A program made the position numbers and the translations under genes. The notes beneath the pieces were generated by a model. That model saw only the letters and a program-made list of their open reading frames with translations, was not told the origin of the DNA and did no database searches. Below are positions 17,411 to 26,174 of a stretch of DNA of 64,000 nucleotides, piece by piece. Each line of letters begins with the position of its first letter. Position 1 is the stretch's first letter. This stretch comes from Bacteroidales bacterium (GTDB lineage: Bacteria > Bacteroidota > Bacteroidia > Bacteroidales > UBA932): the NCBI GenBank assembly GCA_017529425.1, contig JAFXNQ010000034.1, positions 15,112 through 79,111 of the forward strand, in the 5' to 3' direction.

Positions 17411-17465
17411 GGCTCCGGGTACAAGAAAAAGCCGCAAGAAGCGGCTTTTTCTTGTACCCGGAGCC
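17411..17465. terminator. Perfect 25-bp inverted repeat (5-nt loop). Bidirectional terminator that overlaps the 3' end of tRNA-Leu
   Basis: 17411-17435 (ggctccgggtacaagaaaaagccgc) is the exact reverse complement of 17441-17465. The inner part is AAAAAGCCGC-loop-GCGGCTTTTT. The outer 11 nt of the right arm are the tRNA 3' acceptor/T-arm. Confidence 0.7.
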
Positions 17466-17538
17466 GGGGTCGAACCGGCACAGCCTCGCGGCCACTGGTG
17501 TTTGAGACCAGCGCGTCTACCGATTCCGCCATCCGGGC
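17455..17538 (-). tRNA. tRNA-Leu (anticodon CAA), class II with long variable arm
   Basis: The minus strand reads GCCCGGATGGCGGAATCGGTAGACGCGCTGGTCTCAAACACCAG...GGTTCGACCCCGGCTCCGGGTA. The 7-bp acceptor stem closes. Anticodon loop is CTCAAAC. No encoded CCA. Confidence 0.9.
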
Positions 17539-17602: not shown

Positions 17603-17816
17603 TGGCATTTTTCCGAAATTCCAATACTATGTTTCGTACCTGAAGATGCAGAAGCGCGGGAGAACCCCGTGGCGGCAAATGTGCTGTCATTCAGCATTTT
17701 ACGCTAACTAACCCGCGCGTATTAATGCGGGTTGCTTTTAATAAGTTGTTGATAATCAGAGGGATTGCCGCCAGCGTTCTCTTGTTGGACAGCGGAGTGT
17801 GGTATAGAATCCTTGA

Positions 17817-19793
17817 CTATTTCAGTGGGAATCTAGGCCACAAGCGGTCAATGACATCTACATCATCTACCTTTACTGTTGTGTCGCTGATATAGTCGGC
17901 AGCCAGCAGCGTCATTGCCAGCCGGTGGTCACCGTGCGATGAGACATTCCCGCCTTTAAGCGTCTTGTTGAACCCGCCACTGACACTTACACAATCCCCG
18001 TCAAGTTTAATTTCTGCACCAAGGTTCTGAAACTCCTTGACATACTGTGACTCTTTACCCATAAGGGAGCGGACGCCGTGGATACGGCTCTCACCCTCAC
18101 AACGCAGCGAGAGCAGAATCAGTGGCCCCAGAAGGTCGGGGCACGAAGCGATATCGCATTCGAATGCCGCCATTACTGTACGCAGGGCAGAGTGATAACC
18201 TATGGTGTCGGTGAGATAATCCATCTCCGGGTCGGTGAAGCGTTCTATATCGGCTCCCGCGGTCTCCAGCACCTCCAGGATATAGTTTTCTGCCTGAAGC
18301 GATTTCACCAGCATATTGTCCACGCCTGCTTCGCCCGCAACCGCACCTAGCACCAGCCAGAGTGCTGCAGCCCCCCAGTCGTTCTCAATCTCCATCCGCC
18401 CGGGTCGGTATGCCTGCCCGCCGGAGAAACTGTAAGTTACGCATTTTCCGTCGGCACCGGAGACTTCATCATACTTTATCCCCATACGGGAAACGACGTC
18501 GGCAGATACCTGAATATGTGGCTGCACGGCGGTATCACGCACTTTTACTACAACATCCCCGTCTTCTACCAATGGCAGTGCCATCATAAGTCCGGAGGCA
18601 AACTGCGAGCTTGCAGGAGAAACGATATTGTATGTTCCGGCTTTGAGCGGCCCTTGGACAAACGCCGGCAAGCGCCCTTGAGAGAAATCGACGAATACCC
18701 CGTGGCGGGTGAGCTCCGGACACCCTTTGGAAAATTTCCGCTGCATAAGGGCCCCACGCCCCGTTATCATAACCATCTTGCGCGAAAGTGCCGCAAGAGG
18801 TATGCATATGCGGCACAACAAGCCGCAACTGCCGATATCCAGAATGTCCCGCCTGACCTTGAGCCCGTCTTTGCCGATATTCTGATTGCCGGTAATTGTG
18901 AGCGACCTGTTCTTGAAATCGATATCTATGGTGGCGAAAAGCTGCTTTGCCACATTGATGGCATCCAGGACATCATCGCAGAGGGTTACATTGTCCAGCA
19001 CCGTGACGCCGGAGGTGAGGGCCGCCGCAACAATTGCCCTGACGGCTATGCTCTTTGCAGAAGGGGGATAAACGTCACCAATAACAACATTATCCTCCTT
19101 TGGCAGGATGTCATAGAAGAGCGGCTGCCCCTCCGCGGTGGGGAGACGGCGGCGGGGGGCGCAATACATCAGCGGAGCCCCTTTGTGGAAGGAATCGTAA
19201 CGCGACTGCTCCCCTTCGCTGCCCATGGCAAATGCGATGAGACGGCCGGCCTCAAAATGGTCGTAAAGCGCCAGCACGCGGCTGCTTTCTGCCGAGTGGT
19301 GGGCGGTGGTTACAATCTTTGCTATATCGGCGCCCAAGGCAAAACAGCGGTTAACCGTAGCCGTCAGGCTTTCCGTAGAGTCGGTGCCGAAGGCGTTGTG
19401 ATAAGACAGTATCACCTTGCAGCCATAGTTCATGGCAAGATTCATCAGCCACTTGAGCTCCGGCCTGGGGAAATCCATGTCGATATCGATATAATCGGCG
19501 CCGGCAATGATGGCTGCGCTTAGTACCCTGACCGCCATATCCACCTCAGATGTTTCGGGAGCATCATCGCCACCCTCCAGATCAAGTGTATCAACCTCGC
19601 TCGGGTCCTTGATGCGATAGGTGGCCACCACGCGGCAGTCACCCCTGTTAGCCATAAAGTATCTGATGTCGGGCACGTCGAAGATCAAATCGTCCAGACG
19701 CAATTCAACCGCGTGCTCTCCGATGCCGGCATTTGCCCACGCGAGGCAATAATCGACATCCATCTGACACAGAGAGCAGCAAACCAGACCCAT
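17817..19793 (-). CDS. Fusion protein: type I 3-dehydroquinate dehydratase (AroD) domain plus divergent EPSP-synthase-family (AroA-like) domain
   Basis: N-terminal residues about 1-225 carry AroD-type motifs: ILSYHNAFGT (catalytic His), GADIAKIVTTA (Schiff-base Lys), AMGSEGEQSRY. Residues about 235-658 are EPSPS-like: PPSAKSIAVRAIVAAAL, GSCGLLCR, ASSQFASGLMMA, CPDLLGPL, GDHRLAM. 5-nt gap after the S41 peptidase gene. Confidence 0.7.
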   Translation of the reverse strand: MGLVCCSLCQMDVDYCLAWANAGIGEHAVELRLDDLIFDVPDIRYFMANRGDCRVVATYRIKDPSEVDTLDLEGGDDAPETSEVDMAVRVLSAAIIAGADYIDIDMDFPRPELKWLMNLAMNYGCKVILSYHNAFGTDSTESLTATVNRCFALGADIAKIVTTAHHSAESSRVLALYDHFEAGRLIAFAMGSEGEQSRYDSFHKGAPLMYCAPRRRLPTAEGQPLFYDILPKEDNVVIGDVYPPSAKSIAVRAIVAAALTSGVTVLDNVTLCDDVLDAINVAKQLFATIDIDFKNRSLTITGNQNIGKDGLKVRRDILDIGSCGLLCRICIPLAALSRKMVMITGRGALMQRKFSKGCPELTRHGVFVDFSQGRLPAFVQGPLKAGTYNIVSPASSQFASGLMMALPLVEDGDVVVKVRDTAVQPHIQVSADVVSRMGIKYDEVSGADGKCVTYSFSGGQAYRPGRMEIENDWGAAALWLVLGAVAGEAGVDNMLVKSLQAENYILEVLETAGADIERFTDPEMDYLTDTIGYHSALRTVMAAFECDIASCPDLLGPLILLSLRCEGESRIHGVRSLMGKESQYVKEFQNLGAEIKLDGDCVSVSGGFNKTLKGGNVSSHGDHRLAMTLLAADYISDTTVKVDDVDVIDRLWPRFPLK

Positions 19794-19798
19794 AAGGA

Positions 19799-21409
19799 CT
19801 ATTTATTCTCTATCCAGCGGTCAATCGACTGATAGAGCTGCTTGTCGTAACGCAGATTCACTATGGAAGATGCCTTCTGGAAATAGTATTTTACTGCGAT
19901 ATCCGACTCTATGAGCGGCTTGACCTCATCTTTGACCAGGCGCAGTGCATCCTCCTTGCTGATGTCCAGCTTGGCCTTGAGCGCCTCTATCTCGGCGCGG
20001 CAACTGTCGTAGGTCCCCTCGTATTTGGCAGCCTCCACCAGCTTCTCTATCTCTGCGTCACTGCCGCTCCGCCAGTCAAAGGTCTTGTTCTCGCAGAAGG
20101 CAATGAACTCCTCGTATTCCTCGTCAGAGAGAGAGAACTCGGAGGCCGGGGCGATGGTTTCGTGACGGTTATAGTAATCGATAGCGTATTCGCCTATGAT
20201 ATCGTTGTAAACCAGCGAATATGTCGGGCGGCTGTAACGGGTGTTCTCAACCACGATATCGGGGGTGATGCCGCCGCCATCTTTCACAATGCGACCGGAA
20301 GCAGTCTTGAACTCGTGGGTGAGTGAATCTGGAATCGAGCCGACGCTGCCGTCCTCGTTACGATGGCTGTAATCTATAGCCTGCACGCAACGGCCGCTGG
20401 GTGTATAATACTTGCCGGTGGTCACCTTGAGTGTACCGTTGAAAGCCGTAGGGCGCACCGACTGGATGAGCCCCTTGCCAAAAGAACGGGTGCCGGCTAT
20501 AGTGCCGCGGTCCAGATCCTGGAAGGCGCCCGCCACAATTTCGCTGGCGGAGGCGCTGCCGCTGTTAATCATCACCATCACGGGAATCTCTGTATCAATG
20601 GGATCTGTCTGGGTGCGATATGACACATTCATCCCCCTCATACGTCCTTTTGAAGAGACCACGAGGGTACCTTTGGGCACGAACATCGACACCAGTTTGA
20701 TAGCTTCGTCCATAAGTCCGCCACCGTTGCCGCGCAGGTCAATGATAAGGCGTTTGGCTCCTTGTTTCTTGAGTTCCTGGAAGGCATGTTTGAATTCCGA
20801 ATGCATCCCGGATGTGAAACCGGTGATGGAGATATAACCAATATCGTCACGGAGAATACAGTAATTCTCTATGTTGGAGATATGTATCCGCTCACGCTTT
20901 ACAGTGATATCCGTAACCTCTTTAGTGCGACCCTTGATTACCTTGAATTCCACTTTGCTGCCAGGCTGCCCTTTCATCCGGTTGGAGGACTCCTGTGAGG
21001 TCTCTCCATAAACGCTCTTTCCGTCTATGGCTATTATGCTGTCACCGGGCTGCAGCCCAGCCTTCACCGCCGGACTGTCGGGATAGGGTTCCGTGATGAG
21101 CACCGCCTCGCCCGGACGTTTTTTGATGAGTGAGCCCACACCGCCATATATGCCAGTTGTCATCATCTGCACGTCATCTTCATCCTCTTCAGGGTAATAG
21201 ACCGTATAAGGATCCAGAGATGATAGCATAGCGTTGATGCCGGTAGTCACAAGTTTGCCAAACTGAAGGGTATCTACATAGTTTGCAGAGAGTTGCTTCA
21301 GGATTGAATTCTGTATGTCAAGCGACTTGGCCAGGTCAAAATTGGCACTCTGGGCCGATGCGGTCAGGGAAAAGACCGCCAAAGCGAATATCGCCAATAT
21401 CTTTCTCAT
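19799..21409 (-). CDS. S41 family C-terminal processing peptidase (tail-specific protease)
   Basis: Signal peptide, PDZ region (GLQPGDSIIAIDG), catalytic region GSASASEIVAGAFQD...GTRSFGKGLIQ. Confidence 0.85.
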   Translation of the reverse strand: MRKILAIFALAVFSLTASAQSANFDLAKSLDIQNSILKQLSANYVDTLQFGKLVTTGINAMLSSLDPYTVYYPEEDEDDVQMMTTGIYGGVGSLIKKRPGEAVLITEPYPDSPAVKAGLQPGDSIIAIDGKSVYGETSQESSNRMKGQPGSKVEFKVIKGRTKEVTDITVKRERIHISNIENYCILRDDIGYISITGFTSGMHSEFKHAFQELKKQGAKRLIIDLRGNGGGLMDEAIKLVSMFVPKGTLVVSSKGRMRGMNVSYRTQTDPIDTEIPVMVMINSGSASASEIVAGAFQDLDRGTIAGTRSFGKGLIQSVRPTAFNGTLKVTTGKYYTPSGRCVQAIDYSHRNEDGSVGSIPDSLTHEFKTASGRIVKDGGGITPDIVVENTRYSRPTYSLVYNDIIGEYAIDYYNRHETIAPASEFSLSDEEYEEFIAFCENKTFDWRSGSDAEIEKLVEAAKYEGTYDSCRAEIEALKAKLDISKEDALRLVKDEVKPLIESDIAVKYYFQKASSIVNLRYDKQLYQSIDRWIENK

Positions 21410-21461: not shown

Positions 21462-22523
21462 TCAGGCCTCTTTGATGTAGTTTACAATCCATGCGCCGAC
21501 CTCTTTGGTACCATACTTGGCACCGCCGGAAACCTGTATCTCCGGGGTGCGAACATTGGCATCTAGCGATGCAGCCACCGCACGGCGGATCAGCGCGCCC
21601 TCTTCTTTGAGGTCGAAATACTCGAACAGCATGGCTGCGGAGAGTATCTGCGCAAGCGGATTGGCAATATTCAACCCCTTGGCTGCGGGCCAGCTGCCGT
21701 GAACCGGCTCAAAGACGGGAGTATGTTCCCCTGTAGAGGCGCTGGGAAGAAGCCCCATGCTACCTGTGATGCAGCTACCCTCGTCGGTGAGGATATCTCC
21801 GAAAGTGTTCTCAGTAACCATCACATCAAAAAACTTGGGCTCCTGAATCATGCGCATAGAGGCGTTGTCCACATACATGAAATCGGTGGTCACATCGGGA
21901 TACTGAGGAGCCATCTCCTGCGCCACTTTGCGCCACAGACGGCTGGATGCCAGCACATTGGCTTTGTCCACAACGGTGAGGTGGCGGTTGCGGCGGCGGG
22001 CATACTCATAACCAACCTTGAGGATGCGCTCCACCTCGCCACGGGTATAATAGTTTGTGTCGTAGGCCTTCTCGTCGTCCTGATACTTCTCCCCGAAATA
22101 CATGCCGCCGGTGAGTTCGCGGATACAGATGAAATCGGCGCCGCGCACCAGTTCGTCCTTCAGCGGAGAGTTGTGAACAAGGCAGTCGAAGGTCTCGATG
22201 GGGCGGATGTTGGCAAACAGGCCCAGCTTCTTGCGCATGGCCAGCAGACCCTGCTCCGGACGCACCTTGGCTGTTGGATTGTTATCGAAACGGGGGTCGC
22301 CGACTGCGGAGAACAGTACGGCGTCGGCCTCCATACATGTCTGGAAAGTCTCCTCCGGGAACGGGTCACCTACCTTGTCAATGGCATCTGCTCCGCATAC
22401 AGCCTCTTTGAAAGATACTTCGTGCCCGAACTTGTCGCACACCGCCTGCATTACGTCAACACCAACTTTGGATATTTCGGGACCGATACCGTCACCGGGA
22501 AGAACTGCTATCTTAAGTTTCAT
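21462..22523 (-). CDS. leuB: 3-isopropylmalate dehydrogenase
   Basis: [18 protein letters not shown]-terminus. [23 protein letters not shown]...[10 protein letters not shown]. Confidence 0.9.
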
Positions 22524-22529
22524 TGTATA

Positions 22530-24077
22530 TTAGTTTTCGCTTGTTATGATATTCAGCATTTTCATTGTCGCCTTGATGGCCGCCTCGACCTGATCTGCAT
22601 CCAGGCCGCGGGTGTGAATGGTGCGGCCGTTGTAATCCCAGTCGATGCGGGTCTGCACCAGCGCGTCGGTACGTCCTCCGGGAGGGATCGACACGGCGTA
22701 ATCGCTCAGCCAGGGGAACGCGAGCCCCAGATGGTCGCGGAAGATGTGGCGCACGGCACGCACAAAGGCATCGTACTGGCCATCGCCGGAGGCCTGCTCC
22801 TGATAGACCTTACCCTTGACCTCAAGCTTGACGATTGCCGTTGGTTTGAGGCCGTGGGCGGTACTTACCATATAGCTGAGCAACTTGACATTCTCCTGAG
22901 TTATGTCGTGCCCCAGCACGTCGCTTACAATGAACGGGAGGTCGTCCGGGGTCACTGTCTCTTTCTTGTCACCGAGCTCGATTATACGGTCGGTGACGCG
23001 GCGGGTCTGCTCCGGAGTCAGGTCCAGATTCATGTTCTCCAGGTTCTTGAGGACATTTGCCTTACCGCTGTTCTTACCAAGGGCATACTCCCGTTTGCGG
23101 CCGAAGCGCTCCGGCAGAAGGTCGTTGCAATAGAGGTTGTTCTTCTTGTCACCGTCGGCATGGACACCTGCCACCTGAGTGAACACATTGTCGCCCACTA
23201 TGGGACGGTTGGCGGGTATCGGGGTGCTGGAATAGCTCGACACCATTCGGCTTAGCTCGTGAAGGCGGCTTTCGTCTACACCGGTAGCCACTTCAGCCAT
23301 GTCTGCCAGGACTGCCTCCACGCTGGCAAGCGGGGCATTGCCGGCACGCTCGCCGAGGCCGTTCACGCAAGTGTGAACCCCCTGGCAACCCGCCTTGACT
23401 GCGGCCAGGGTATTGGCCACCGCCAAATCATAGTCGTTATGGGCGTGGAAATCGAACCTCAACTCCGGGAACCGGGCCACCATCTGCCCCACAAAATCTG
23501 TCACCTGAGAGGGCGAGAGCACCCCCAGGGTATCTGGCAGCATAAAGCGGCACACTCCGCAACCTTTCATGGATTCGACCATGTTGAAGACATACCCGGG
23601 AGAATTCTTCATCCCGTTGCTCCAGTCTTCGAGATAGAGGTTCACCTCCAGACCCTTGCTATGGGCATAGACGATGGCTTCCCGGATTTGGGCGATGTGC
23701 TCTTCAGGGGTCTTGCCCAGCTGCTCGCGGCAGTGGCGCTCGCTACCCTTGGTGAGCAGGTTCATAACGCGGGCACCGCAACCGGAGATCCAGTCTGCAG
23801 AGAGTGTCCCGTCCACAAATCCGAGCACCTCTACGCGCTCCAGCAAGCCGTTGCGCTCAGCCCACCCGCAAATTTCGCTCACCGAATCCCGCTCCCCTTC
23901 AGAAACGCGGGCCGATGCGACCTCGATGCGGTCGACCTTGGCACTCTGCAGCAGGAAACGGGCGATGAGCAGCTTCTCGTGCGGCACAAAATTGACGCCG
24001 CTGGTCTGCTCCCCGTCCCTCAGGGTCGTGTCCATAATCTCGATCTCCCGCTTCTCCATGATATCTCTTTTATGCAT
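22530..24077 (-). CDS. 2-isopropylmalate synthase / (R)-citramalate synthase family enzyme
   Basis: IMDTTLRDGEQTSGV, IEVASARVSEGE, FHAHNDYDLAVANTLAA, plus a C-terminal LeuA-dimer-type regulatory domain. It sits between leuD and leuB. LeuA and CimA cannot be distinguished by eye. The start could instead be Met7 (24059). Confidence 0.8.
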   Translation of the reverse strand: MHKRDIMEKREIEIMDTTLRDGEQTSGVNFVPHEKLLIARFLLQSAKVDRIEVASARVSEGERDSVSEICGWAERNGLLERVEVLGFVDGTLSADWISGCGARVMNLLTKGSERHCREQLGKTPEEHIAQIREAIVYAHSKGLEVNLYLEDWSNGMKNSPGYVFNMVESMKGCGVCRFMLPDTLGVLSPSQVTDFVGQMVARFPELRFDFHAHNDYDLAVANTLAAVKAGCQGVHTCVNGLGERAGNAPLASVEAVLADMAEVATGVDESRLHELSRMVSSYSSTPIPANRPIVGDNVFTQVAGVHADGDKKNNLYCNDLLPERFGRKREYALGKNSGKANVLKNLENMNLDLTPEQTRRVTDRIIELGDKKETVTPDDLPFIVSDVLGHDITQENVKLLSYMVSTAHGLKPTAIVKLEVKGKVYQEQASGDGQYDAFVRAVRHIFRDHLGLAFPWLSDYAVSIPPGGRTDALVQTRIDWDYNGRTIHTRGLDADQVEAAIKATMKMLNIITSEN

Positions 24078-24666
24078 TGGCCTTTTCCCACGCCTCGATC
24101 TTTGATTTGCTCTCCAGAAGAAAATCGATGTCGTCGAGGCCGTTCATAAGGCAGTATTTCTTGTAACCGTTCAGGTCAAAATGTTCGCTGCGGCCGGTGG
24201 CCAGGTTGGTGACTGTCTGAGCGGGCACATTAACCTCAACCTCGGTGGCCGGGTTGGCCTTGATGCTTGCAAACAGCTCTGCGAGAAAATCTTCGCTCAC
24301 AGTGACGGGCAGCACAAAGTTGTTCAGCTCGTTGTTGCGGTGGATATCGGCAAAGAAGCTCGAAATCACCACGCGGAAGCCGTATCCCGCGATGGCCCAT
24401 GCGGCGTGTTCGCGGCTGCTGCCGTTACCGAAGTTTTTGCCTGCTACCAGAATGCACCCGCTGTATGTAGGGTCGTTCAGTACGAAATTCTGGTTGGGCG
24501 TGCCATCGGCGTTGTAGCGCCAGTCGCAGAACAGGTTGTCACCAAAGAATTTCTCGTCGCGGGTGGTAGCCTTCAGAAAGCGGGCGGGGATTATCTGGTC
24601 GGTATCCACATTCTCCAGAGGGAGGGGGACACATGTACTCTTGATTATGTTAAACTTCTGTTTCAT
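24070..24666 (-). CDS. leuD: 3-isopropylmalate dehydratase small subunit
   Basis: 198 aa. VPLPLENVDTDQIIPARFLK, GKNFGNGSSREHAAWA. Confidence 0.9.
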   Translation of the reverse strand: MKQKFNIIKSTCVPLPLENVDTDQIIPARFLKATTRDEKFFGDNLFCDWRYNADGTPNQNFVLNDPTYSGCILVAGKNFGNGSSREHAAWAIAGYGFRVVISSFFADIHRNNELNNFVLPVTVSEDFLAELFASIKANPATEVEVNVPAQTVTNLATGRSEHFDLNGYKKYCLMNGLDDIDFLLESKSKIEAWEKANA

Positions 24667-24672
24667 GGCGGC

Positions 24673-26067
24673 TTACATTAAGGTTCTGGGATCTGTGACA
24701 ACACCGGTAACGGCTGCGGCTGCGGCAGTCAAAGGACTGGCCAGCACGGTGCGTGCACCAGGACCCTGACGTCCCTCGAAGTTGCGGTTGGAGGTAGAAA
24801 CCGAGAGCTTCCCTGCAGGAATCTTGTCGTCGTTCATGGCCAGGCAGGCGCTGCAGCCGGGTTGGCGGATTTCGAAACCGGCCTCCTCGAGTATTTTGTC
24901 CAGGCCCTCGCTCTCTATCTGCTCCTTAACCATCCAGCTGCCTGGTACCAGCCAGCAAACCACTCCGGGAGCCTTTTTGCGCCCTGCGGCGATGGAGGCG
25001 AATGCCCGGAAATCTTCTATACGGCCGTTGGTGCAACTCCCGCAGAACACGTAGTCGACCTTCTTGCCCAGCAACTGCTCTCCGGGAGCGAAGCTCATGT
25101 AATTGAGCGAGCGCAGGAATGAAGCCTGACCGCTCTCGGGCACACTGGCGAGCGCCGGGATTGAACTTTCGATACCCATGCCCATACCCGGATTGGTACC
25201 ATAGGTCACCATCGGGGTGATGTCCTCTGCCTTGTATACGATTTCCCGGTCAAACACTGCGTCGTCGCCACTGCGGAGGGTCTTCCAATATTCAACCGCC
25301 TTGTCCCACTCGGCCCCCTTGGGAGCATGCTCGCGCCCCTTGATGTATTCGAACGTCTTCTCGTCGGGAGCGACAAAGCCGCCGCGGGCACCCATTTCTA
25401 TGGAGAGGTTGCAAAGTGTAAGGCGTCCCTCCATACTGAGGTCGCGAACCACGCTGCCGGCATACTCGACAAAATAACCCGTAGCACCGCTTGTGGACAT
25501 CTTGCTCATGATGTACAGAGCCACATCTTTTGCTGTAACTCCCTTTGCCAGTTTACCTTCTACACTGATACGCATGGATTTGGGCTTCTGCTGCAGGATG
25601 CACTGAGAAGCCATCACCATCTCCACCTCGGAAGTTCCGATTCCGAAGGCAACCGCACCCATGGCACCGTGGGTCGAGGTGTGGGAGTCGCCGCACACGA
25701 TTGTCATGCCGGGCAGCGAAAGGCCTCTCTCGGGCCCTACGACGTGGATAATGCCGTTGCGCTTGTCCAGCATCCCGTAGTGGGTCAGGCCAAATTCGGC
25801 GGCATTTGCGGCCAGGGTGTCGACCTGTTTCTTGGAGACGGGGTCCTCGATGGGTTTGTCTTGGTCGTGGGTGGGTGTATTATGGTCCGGCATGCATACG
25901 ATCTGCTGCGGGCGGAGAGGCTTGATGCCTCGCTCCCGCATACCGTCAAATGCCTGTGGTGTAGTCACTTCATGGCAGTACAGCCGGTCTATGTAGAGCT
26001 GTGTGGGGCCGTCCTCAACTATCTGGACGACGTGCTTGTCCCAAATCTTATCGAAAAGTGTGTTCAT
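24673..26067 (-). CDS. leuC: 3-isopropylmalate dehydratase large subunit
   Basis: [12 protein letters not shown] start (the ORF track extends to 26091). Aconitase-family motifs [36 protein letters not shown]. Confidence 0.9.
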
Positions 26068-26174
26068 CGCATTTGGTCTAATGGAGTGCAAAGGTTTGAA
26101 TTTTTAACCATTTAACCAATTTTTCCGATTACAAGTTATCCGGTTGACTTGCCCCAGAAAACCTATTTTTATTA

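Follow-up and report, generated by a model that had tools for sequence, protein, structure and literature searches.

A selectively maintained dehydroquinase-EPSP synthase-fold fusion with an eroded EPSP synthase site in rumen Bacteroidales

Introduction

A 64,000-nucleotide stretch of the Bacteroidales contig JAFXNQ010000034.1 (the window) encodes a 658-residue protein, P0001, in which a type I 3-dehydroquinate dehydratase (dehydroquinase, AroD) is followed in the same chain by a domain of the 5-enolpyruvylshikimate-3-phosphate (EPSP) synthase (EPSPS, AroA) family. The EPSPS-like half has lost residues that are invariant in canonical fusions of this kind. What, then, is P0001 kept for? The initial annotation had proposed either an unusual, possibly glyphosate-insensitive EPSPS or an enolpyruvyl-transferase fold recruited to another pathway. 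Our analysis reveals that P0001 itself is the second copy of an enzyme already typical of its family, a copy that has eroded and yet is maintained by selection, with no evidence so far for new chemistry. The explanation to which we give about an even chance is that P0001 is a spare copy of the family's AroD-AroA enzyme in which the dehydroquinase is retained and the EPSPS-fold module is no longer an EPSPS and probably non-catalytic.

A survey of Pfam architectures has already listed DHquinase_I among the domains associated with EPSPS in a few bacteria (bioRxiv 10.1101/2020.05.27.118265). In full-text searches for AroD-AroA fusions in Bacteroidetes, this survey was the only mention, and no experimental characterisation was found.

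Results

The open reading frame (ORF) call and Pfam bear out the initial annotation of a single 658-residue frame with two domains. Residues 5-224 match DHquinase_I (91.8 bits, passing the Pfam cut-off of 22.2), and residues 237-656 match EPSP_synthase (187.3 bits). The motifs that it had pointed out are all found in their places, namely SYHNAF with His132 and ADIAKIV with Lys159 in the first half, and AKS...VR (within PSAKSIAVR), ASSQF, CPD and DHRLAM (within GDHRLAM) in the second, which also has GSCGLLCR, K-E-S-Q-Y and DRLWPRF. An AlphaFold2 model built with 56 homologues as input has a mean predicted local distance difference test (pLDDT) score of 92 and a predicted template modelling (pTM) score of 0.90. 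In Foldseek comparisons, the C-terminal part of the model gave a template modelling (TM) score of 0.85 with liganded E. coli EPSPS and of 0.53 with the open form (1eps). The fold of the EPSPS half is predicted to be intact, with the two-lobed inside-out alpha/beta barrel of enolpyruvyl transferases.

Two inserts are modelled with low confidence (pLDDT 56-59), an acidic one of ~20 residues after Arg60 (residues 61-83, window 19550-19610, KDPSEVDTLDLEGGDDAPETSEVD) and one around PEMDYLTD (residues 521-530, window 18203-18232). Both are specific to the clade of fusions at an S41-peptidase locus described below, and the acidic one is also present in the canonical-site copies of genomes G106 and G151.

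We take Lys22, Arg124, Arg344, Arg386 and Lys411 to be the residues of E. coli EPSPS that bind phosphoenolpyruvate (PEP), as in the literature on 1g6s, and Ser23, Arg27, Ser169, Ser170, Gln171, Ser197, Tyr200 and Lys340 to be those that bind shikimate-3-phosphate (S3P). A HMMER alignment of P0001 to E. coli EPSPS (2qfq) matched K247 to K22, S248 to S23, R252 to R27, G324 to G96, R328 to R100, R352 to R124, S395/S396/Q397 to S169/S170/Q171, D553 to D313, K580 to K340, E581 to E341 and H623/R624 to H385/R386. Both binding sets are incomplete in P0001. From the PEP-binding set, Lys22, Arg124 and Arg386 are kept, and Arg344 and Lys411 are gone. Specifically, R344-A347 of the E. coli enzyme fall into a 4-residue gap preceded by Gln583 in place of D343, and Arg650 stands at the Lys411 position, as had been suspected. 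The initial annotation had also read the PEP motif as altered to K-E-S-Q-Y, and none of the alignments that we made restores an Arg at the R344 position. From the S3P-binding set, Ser197 and Tyr200 are replaced by Val423 and His426, and the other listed residues are kept. The Ser197 and Tyr200 equivalents show 100% conservation across the 34 canonical fusions; together with those of Arg344 and Lys411, they make four positions that are invariant in these fusions and changed in P0001. The loop GSCGLLCR, noted earlier as a further departure from the EPSPS consensus, is indeed present, but it is close to GESGLLxR, the usual loop of the functional, canonical enzymes of the lineage, and is therefore unremarkable by itself.

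Could P0001 still be an EPSP synthase, maybe a slow or glyphosate-insensitive isoenzyme of the AroA encoded elsewhere in its genome? Eleven of the 13 core EPSPS residues over which we scored erosion are kept in P0001, including K22, R124, D313, K340, E341 and R386, and its predicted fold is the closed form of EPSPS. Its score against TIGR01356 (aroA) is 216.2 bits, compared with 248 bits for the canonical operon aroA of the same genome, both below the cut-off of 287.25. However, Arg344 is deleted, Lys411, Ser197 and Tyr200 are replaced, K22, K340, E341 and R386 are lost in orthologues, and a canonical aroA invariably accompanies such copies. We consider a surviving EPSP synthase very unlikely. 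The idea of glyphosate insensitivity fares no better, as a canonical operon aroA is present and orthologues lose up to 10 of the 13 core residues under purifying selection.

These scores also bear on how such proteins are named. Class I fusions (defined below) score 297-302 bits with TIGR01356, above the cut-off, whereas a G106-type canonical-site fusion, at 273 bits, falls below it; an eroded class II copy (L025) reaches 210 bits and L016, 137 bits. Some canonical-site proteins score below the cut-off. On its own, TIGR01356 cannot tell a functional copy from an eroded one; this distinction comes from the residues and the genomic pattern. With TIGR01093 (AroD), P0001 scores 70.8 bits against a cut-off of 139.3, and all the fusions of the GTDB family fall below it, the canonical-site ones with 64-90 bits. 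We rejected the cut-offs as a decisive membership test, since the canonical operon aroA and the canonical-site fusions of G106 and G151 miss TIGR01356, and the latter miss TIGR01093 as well. In the NCBI pipeline, class III proteins are called 'type I 3-dehydroquinate dehydratase' only, and the name given to canonical fusions is '3-phosphoshikimate 1-carboxyvinyltransferase'; NCBIfam has no model dedicated to the AroD-AroA fusion.

The dehydroquinase half presents a different picture. We take the substrate-binding residues of Salmonella AroD to be Glu46, Arg48, Arg82, Arg213 and Gln236. P0001 has the complete set of AroD residues, as Glu30, Arg32, Arg60, His132, Lys159, Arg198 and Gln223. Lys159 is invariant in all the fusions aligned. 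In the near clade, one of the sets that we used for residue conservation (22 proteins were compared at the Lys411 position), Glu30, Arg32, Arg60, Lys159, Arg198 and Gln223 are 100% conserved and His132 is 86% conserved. Within the near clade, loss of His132 is confined to the L016 subclade, where the motif reads SYFNP.

The initial annotation knew of no bacterial AroD-AroA fusion, a statement that does not hold for this lineage, where such fusions are common. Of the 151 genomes of the GTDB family, 145 have a type I dehydroquinase, many in open frames of ~650-750 residues, and a protein search returned 83 homologues, both domains being present in all but 3. In an order-wide sample of 251 genomes, two-domain matches were found in this one family only, and elsewhere aroA stands alone (~420 residues). 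Relatives come from metagenome-assembled genomes (MAGs) of rumen Bacteroidales (yak, buffalo, goat). With an N-terminal DHquinase_I and a C-terminal EPSP_synthase domain in one chain, P0001 groups with the family in the tree. Unlike the typical member, it lies outside a shikimate operon and is not the only aroA or dehydroquinase of its genome.

The fusions fall into three locus classes. Class I sits in the order aroB-fusion-aroC and has a canonical EPSPS site (SKS..R, GESGLLxR, KES[DN]R, DHR, KSFP); the canonical fusions of these operons have 13/13 core residues. Class II has the order S41 peptidase-aroB-fusion, with a canonical site in G106 and G151 and an eroded one in five others. Class III, to which P0001 belongs, has the order leuC-leuD-leuA-leuB-S41 peptidase-fusion without aroB, and an eroded site. 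All 13 class III genes have K411R and no Arg344, and 12 of the 13 have the 4-residue deletion.

In maximum-likelihood trees (a quick search, with support by the Shimodaira-Hasegawa-like approximate likelihood ratio test, SH-aLRT, only), classes II and III are united in a single clade (SH-aLRT 100), and an L014-type class I fusion and the long-branched L054 are nearest to it. The five eroded class II genes make a long-stemmed lineage that has lost K22 and SSQ and reads PL for HR. The G106 and G151 class II copies, with 13/13 core residues, are sister to the 13 class III genes (SH-aLRT 97). The canonical-site copies are nested between two eroded lineages, and the EPSPS site has therefore eroded at least twice independently at the S41 locus. 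Across the whole family, parsimony on the tree gives at least five changes of state. Erosion is also graded within class III. P0001 and its two nearest orthologues have lost 2 of the 13 core sites (R344, K411), as well as S197 and Y200; losses elsewhere in the class amount to 3-7 of 13, and in the L016 subclade to 9-10 of 13.

Erosion is accompanied by other genes for the same steps. In a genus survey of 31 genomes for aroA, aroD and aroQ redundancy, the S41-locus fusion has a canonical site in G106 and G151 only. These two genomes have no PF00275 match besides the fusion except murA, and no aroQ, no other aroA and no other aroD. Genomes with an eroded class II copy have a class I fusion and lack aroQ. 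In each of the 13 class III genomes, a standalone aroA of ~400 residues adjoins a type II aroQ. In the window genome, a search for separate genes, as the initial annotation had advised, finds a canonical aroA and an aroQ on contig C63, where DAHP (3-deoxy-D-arabino-heptulosonate-7-phosphate) synthase, tyrA, aroA (406 residues, 13/13 core residues), aroQ, aroC and a chorismate mutase-dehydroquinate (DHQ) synthase fusion lie in one string. Shikimate kinase is present too. Furthermore, a second aroB at C43 is intact (50 of 50 invariant aroB columns), as are the aroB genes adjoining eroded class II copies (46-48 of 50).

The erosion has taken place in genes that are still under selection. Each of the 13 class III and five eroded class II genes that we examined has an intact frame of 646-665 residues, despite amino-acid divergence down to 50%. 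Between the window copy and its closest orthologues (L029, L032), the ratio of nonsynonymous to synonymous substitution rates (dN/dS) lies at 0.055-0.058 in the AroD half and, in the EPSPS-like half, at 0.067-0.072. In the same pairs it is ~0.04 for the S41 peptidase and ~0.02 for leuB; canonical-site fusions, taken as reference, give 0.046-0.17. In the L016 subclade, the values are 0.12-0.16 for AroD and 0.21-0.28 for the EPSPS-like domain. The stepwise loss of active-site residues across orthologues and the redundancy of both activities in the window genome would suit a functionless relic decaying to a pseudogene. This explanation is highly improbable, as the genes of both eroded groups are intact; P0001 is not a pseudogene, because dN/dS is 0.04-0.28 across comparisons. 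Within the EPSPS-like domain, however, the active-site positions enjoy no special conservation. The mean top-residue frequency at EPSPS active-site positions is 0.95 in canonical fusions, against 0.61 for the whole EPSPS domain, and in the near clade it is 0.68 against 0.73. This pattern of conservation points to selection on P0001 that maintains something other than EPSP synthesis.

That something may be a new catalytic role. The EPSPS fold could carry out another enolpyruvyl or related transfer, or act on a non-phosphorylated shikimate-like acceptor, perhaps working with AroD on a compound derived from dehydroquinate or dehydroshikimate. Purifying selection on the EPSPS-like domain is strong (dN/dS ~0.07), Asp313 and Arg100 are invariant, Arg replaces Lys411 in 21 of 22 near-clade proteins, and R436, R466 and R564 are invariant in the near clade only. 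The alteration of the S3P phosphate pocket (S197V, Y200H) would be expected if the acceptor differs. However, K22, S23, R27, R124, Q171, K340, E341 and R386 vary among class III subclades without a new conserved state, and no pathway-type neighbours are conserved apart from the S41 peptidase and leu genes, whose synteny is inherited. Moreover, parallel erosion in at least five lineages resembles loss rather than repeated gain. The initial annotation's idea of a fold recruited to another pathway is possible, but it finds no support in gene context or in the cleft residues, and we consider it unlikely.

A different explanation is that the whole of P0001 is a non-catalytic pseudoenzyme, a regulator, sensor or scaffold that binds, for example, a shikimate intermediate or an aro enzyme, and that its AroD site is a leftover not yet eroded. 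This would agree with the L016 subclade, which has lost the AroD His and 9-10 EPSPS sites and remains intact under selection. It would also agree with second fusions in other genera in which both sites are eroded (L043, L045, L047, L051, L054), and with the redundancy of both activities in the window genome. On the other hand, conservation in the near clade is 100% at six binding and catalytic positions of AroD. AroD is also the more conserved half there (mean top-residue frequency 0.83, against 0.73 for the EPSPS-like half) and has the lower dN/dS in most pairs. A pseudoenzyme throughout is, in our judgement, quite unlikely.

Table 1. Positions of the fusion gene, its active-site features and its surroundings in the window
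Feature	Position	Strand	Remarks
658-residue AroD-EPSPS-like fusion ORF (P0001), class III copy, S41-peptidase locus	17817..19793	-	AlphaFold2 model, pLDDT 92, pTM 0.90
Type I dehydroquinase domain, residues 1-230	19104..19793	-	Pfam PF01487, 91.8 bits, and site conservation
His132 codon, catalytic His of type I dehydroquinase, SYHNAF	19398..19400	-	
Lys159 codon, Schiff-base Lys, ADIAKIV	19317..19319	-	
EPSP synthase-fold domain, residues 237-656, eroded PEP/S3P site	17826..19085	-	Pfam PF00275, 187.3 bits; Foldseek TM 0.85
Val423-Gln-Pro-His426 for Ser197-x-Pro-Tyr200 (S3P pocket)	18516..18527	-	
K-E-S-Q-Y, residues 580-584, for K-E-S-D/N-R-x-x-x; 4-residue deletion takes out the Arg344 equivalent	18042..18056	-	
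Arg650 codon, Lys411 position	17844..17846	-	Arg in 21/22 near-clade proteins; Lys in 34/34 canonical fusions
S41 (C-terminal processing) peptidase with PDZ domain	19799..21409	-	5 nt upstream of the fusion; neighbour kept in classes II and III
leuC-leuD-leuA-leuB	21462..26091	-	Upstream, same strand; synteny kept at all class III loci
tRNA-Leu(CAA)	17454..17538	-	Downstream of the fusion; end of the gene string
GC-rich hairpin, possible terminator	17709..17734	.	~80 nt past the stop codon; consensus scan only

Discussion

We propose that P0001 is a spare copy whose dehydroquinase half is retained and whose EPSPS-fold half no longer makes EPSP. The ancestral pair of aroB and fusion at the S41 locus would have supplied the working enzymes, the fusion being a dehydroquinase/EPSP synthase, as it presumably still is in G106 and G151. 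A further aroA would then have been gained, either as a class I fusion or, in the window genome, with the DAHP synthase-tyrA-aroA-aroQ-aroC-chorismate mutase/aroB operon. In the old copy, the EPSPS site would from then on have gone unmaintained, with Arg344 deleted, Lys411 changed to Arg, and Ser197 and Tyr200 replaced. The protein was probably kept for its dehydroquinase half, which would use a Schiff base at Lys159 to turn 3-dehydroquinate into 3-dehydroshikimate; genomes with an eroded copy also keep a second intact aroB. The EPSPS-fold module may now be a structural or ligand-binding part. The domain architecture, the residue changes, the tree, the redundancy and the selection are observed, whereas dehydroquinase activity, the loss of EPSPS activity and the part played by the eroded module are inferred.

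Several observations weigh against this proposal. A type II dehydroquinase (AroQ) is already present in the window genome, and therefore the need for AroD activity of P0001 is not obvious. Within class III, the subclade of L016 and L038-L040 lacks the AroD His (SYFNP), and its genes are still intact, with dN/dS of 0.12-0.28; whatever the whole of class III conserves, therefore, cannot rest on that His. Since 11 of the 13 core EPSPS residues are kept, P0001 may retain residual or altered transferase activity. Lastly, a dN/dS of ~0.07 is unusually tight for a purely structural module of 420 residues and hints at a function of its own. The presence of AroQ, the loss of the His in the L016 subclade and this tight dN/dS keep both a new catalytic role and a pseudoenzyme in contention.

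A broader scenario is that one rumen/gut Bacteroidales family has turned spare AroD-AroA copies, at least five times, into long-lived, selected proteins with a shared new non-EPSPS function, P0001 being at an early stage. We put this forward as a tentative possibility that we hold to be less than probable. Such a shared function could, for example, be to sense metabolites or regulate as a partner of aromatic amino-acid synthesis, or it could be new transferase chemistry.

Comparison with known systems places P0001 within its own family. The class I Bacteroidales fusions (e.g., MBR6423780.1, annotated as 3-phosphoshikimate 1-carboxyvinyltransferase) have the same domain order and length, belong to the same tree family and are 30-42% identical to P0001. 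Found in shikimate operons, they keep KES[DN]R, KSFP, Ser197 and Tyr200, whereas P0001 has the deletion, K411R, S197V and Y200H and sits at the S41 locus. The nearest canonical-site relative is the fusion of G106 and G151 (leuB-S41-aroB-fusion; 52% identity), which shares the locus, the N-terminus and the acidic insert with P0001. In contrast to P0001, it has 13/13 core sites, adjoins aroB and is the only aroA/aroD of its genome.

Outside the family, E. coli EPSPS AroA (1g6s, 2qfq) has the same fold as the EPSPS half (TM 0.85) at 23% identity. P0001 differs from it in the fused AroD, the deleted R344 and the changes of K411 to Arg, S197 to Val, Y200 to His and D343 to Gln. With type I AroD (PF01487; the plant dehydroquinate dehydratase-shikimate dehydrogenase, 2gpt), P0001 shares the TIM barrel, the catalytic His, the Schiff-base Lys and the Glu/Arg/Arg/Gln binding residues. 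Its AroD half is divergent, however, with 70.8 against 139.3 bits in TIGR01093 and the ~20-residue acidic low-confidence insert after Arg60. The eukaryotic AROM/Aro1 protein (6hqv, 7u5s) also unites EPSPS and a type I dehydroquinase in one chain, but it has five domains in the order AroB-AroA-AroK-AroD-AroE, whereas P0001 has two, AroD-AroA, and there is no sign of a direct evolutionary link.

A gene that domain searches would name aroA/aroD is probably no EPSP synthase. For rumen Bacteroidales, surveys of glyphosate sensitivity and reconstructions of metabolism should rely on the aroA of the operon, or on the class I fusion, rather than on a copy of the P0001 type. Furthermore, the bifunctional AroD-AroA enzyme documented here extends across a bacterial family, is experimentally uncharacterised and lacks an NCBIfam model. 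The orthologue series, which runs from a canonical site through two lost residues to ten, all under purifying selection, could show a route to a pseudoenzyme or to repurposing after functional displacement.

Additional observations

The immediate surroundings of the fusion are given in Table 1; the window has no aro genes as neighbours of P0001. The S41 and leu neighbourhood is inherited synteny and gives no functional clue, because the G106-type canonical-site orthologue shares it. On this ground, we set aside a functional tie between P0001 and its S41 and leu neighbours.

Second fusions with eroded EPSPS sites also occur in other genera (L043, L045, L047, L051, L054), and most of them have eroded AroD sites too (His lost; Lys170 to Arg in L043 and L054). 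These copies lie at loci other than the S41 locus; L047 adjoins aroC, and L051 and L054 adjoin aroB. In the class I fusions L022 (G167:C16) and L019 (G144:C9), the linker between AroD and EPSPS contains a tandem peptide of ~17 residues (RTPQEASHGREISPFSG), with several copies in L022 and one in L019; the interdomain linker is therefore expandable. One genome of the genus with aroQ and a standalone aroA (G155, an 85% complete MAG) had no detected fusion. Some lineages may be able to do without class III, or the fusion may be missing because the MAG is incomplete.

The aromatic genes at C63:68327-74191, outside the window, form a compact one-strand 'supraoperon', in which tyrA encodes prephenate dehydrogenase and the chorismate mutase-DHQ synthase fusion has 415 residues. 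Compared with the other aroB genes of the family, the aroB part of this fusion has a very long branch, which suggests a source outside the family for the operon.

The second aroB of the window genome, at C43, was considered as a relocated aroB of the S41 locus. This was rejected, as it groups with aroB genes of class I operons. As for a class I operon locus that has lost the fusion and aroC, no common flanking genes were found. At C43:12271-16225, also outside the window, radA and this second aroB each have a short in-frame insert of a similar peptide (…RNGLRS.AE…). The radA insert has an inverted repeat, GAGAGTCCGTTTC…GAAACGGACTCTC, of which a BLAST search of the genome turned up no further long copy. 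The radA/aroB insert could be a small palindromic element placed in coding sequence.

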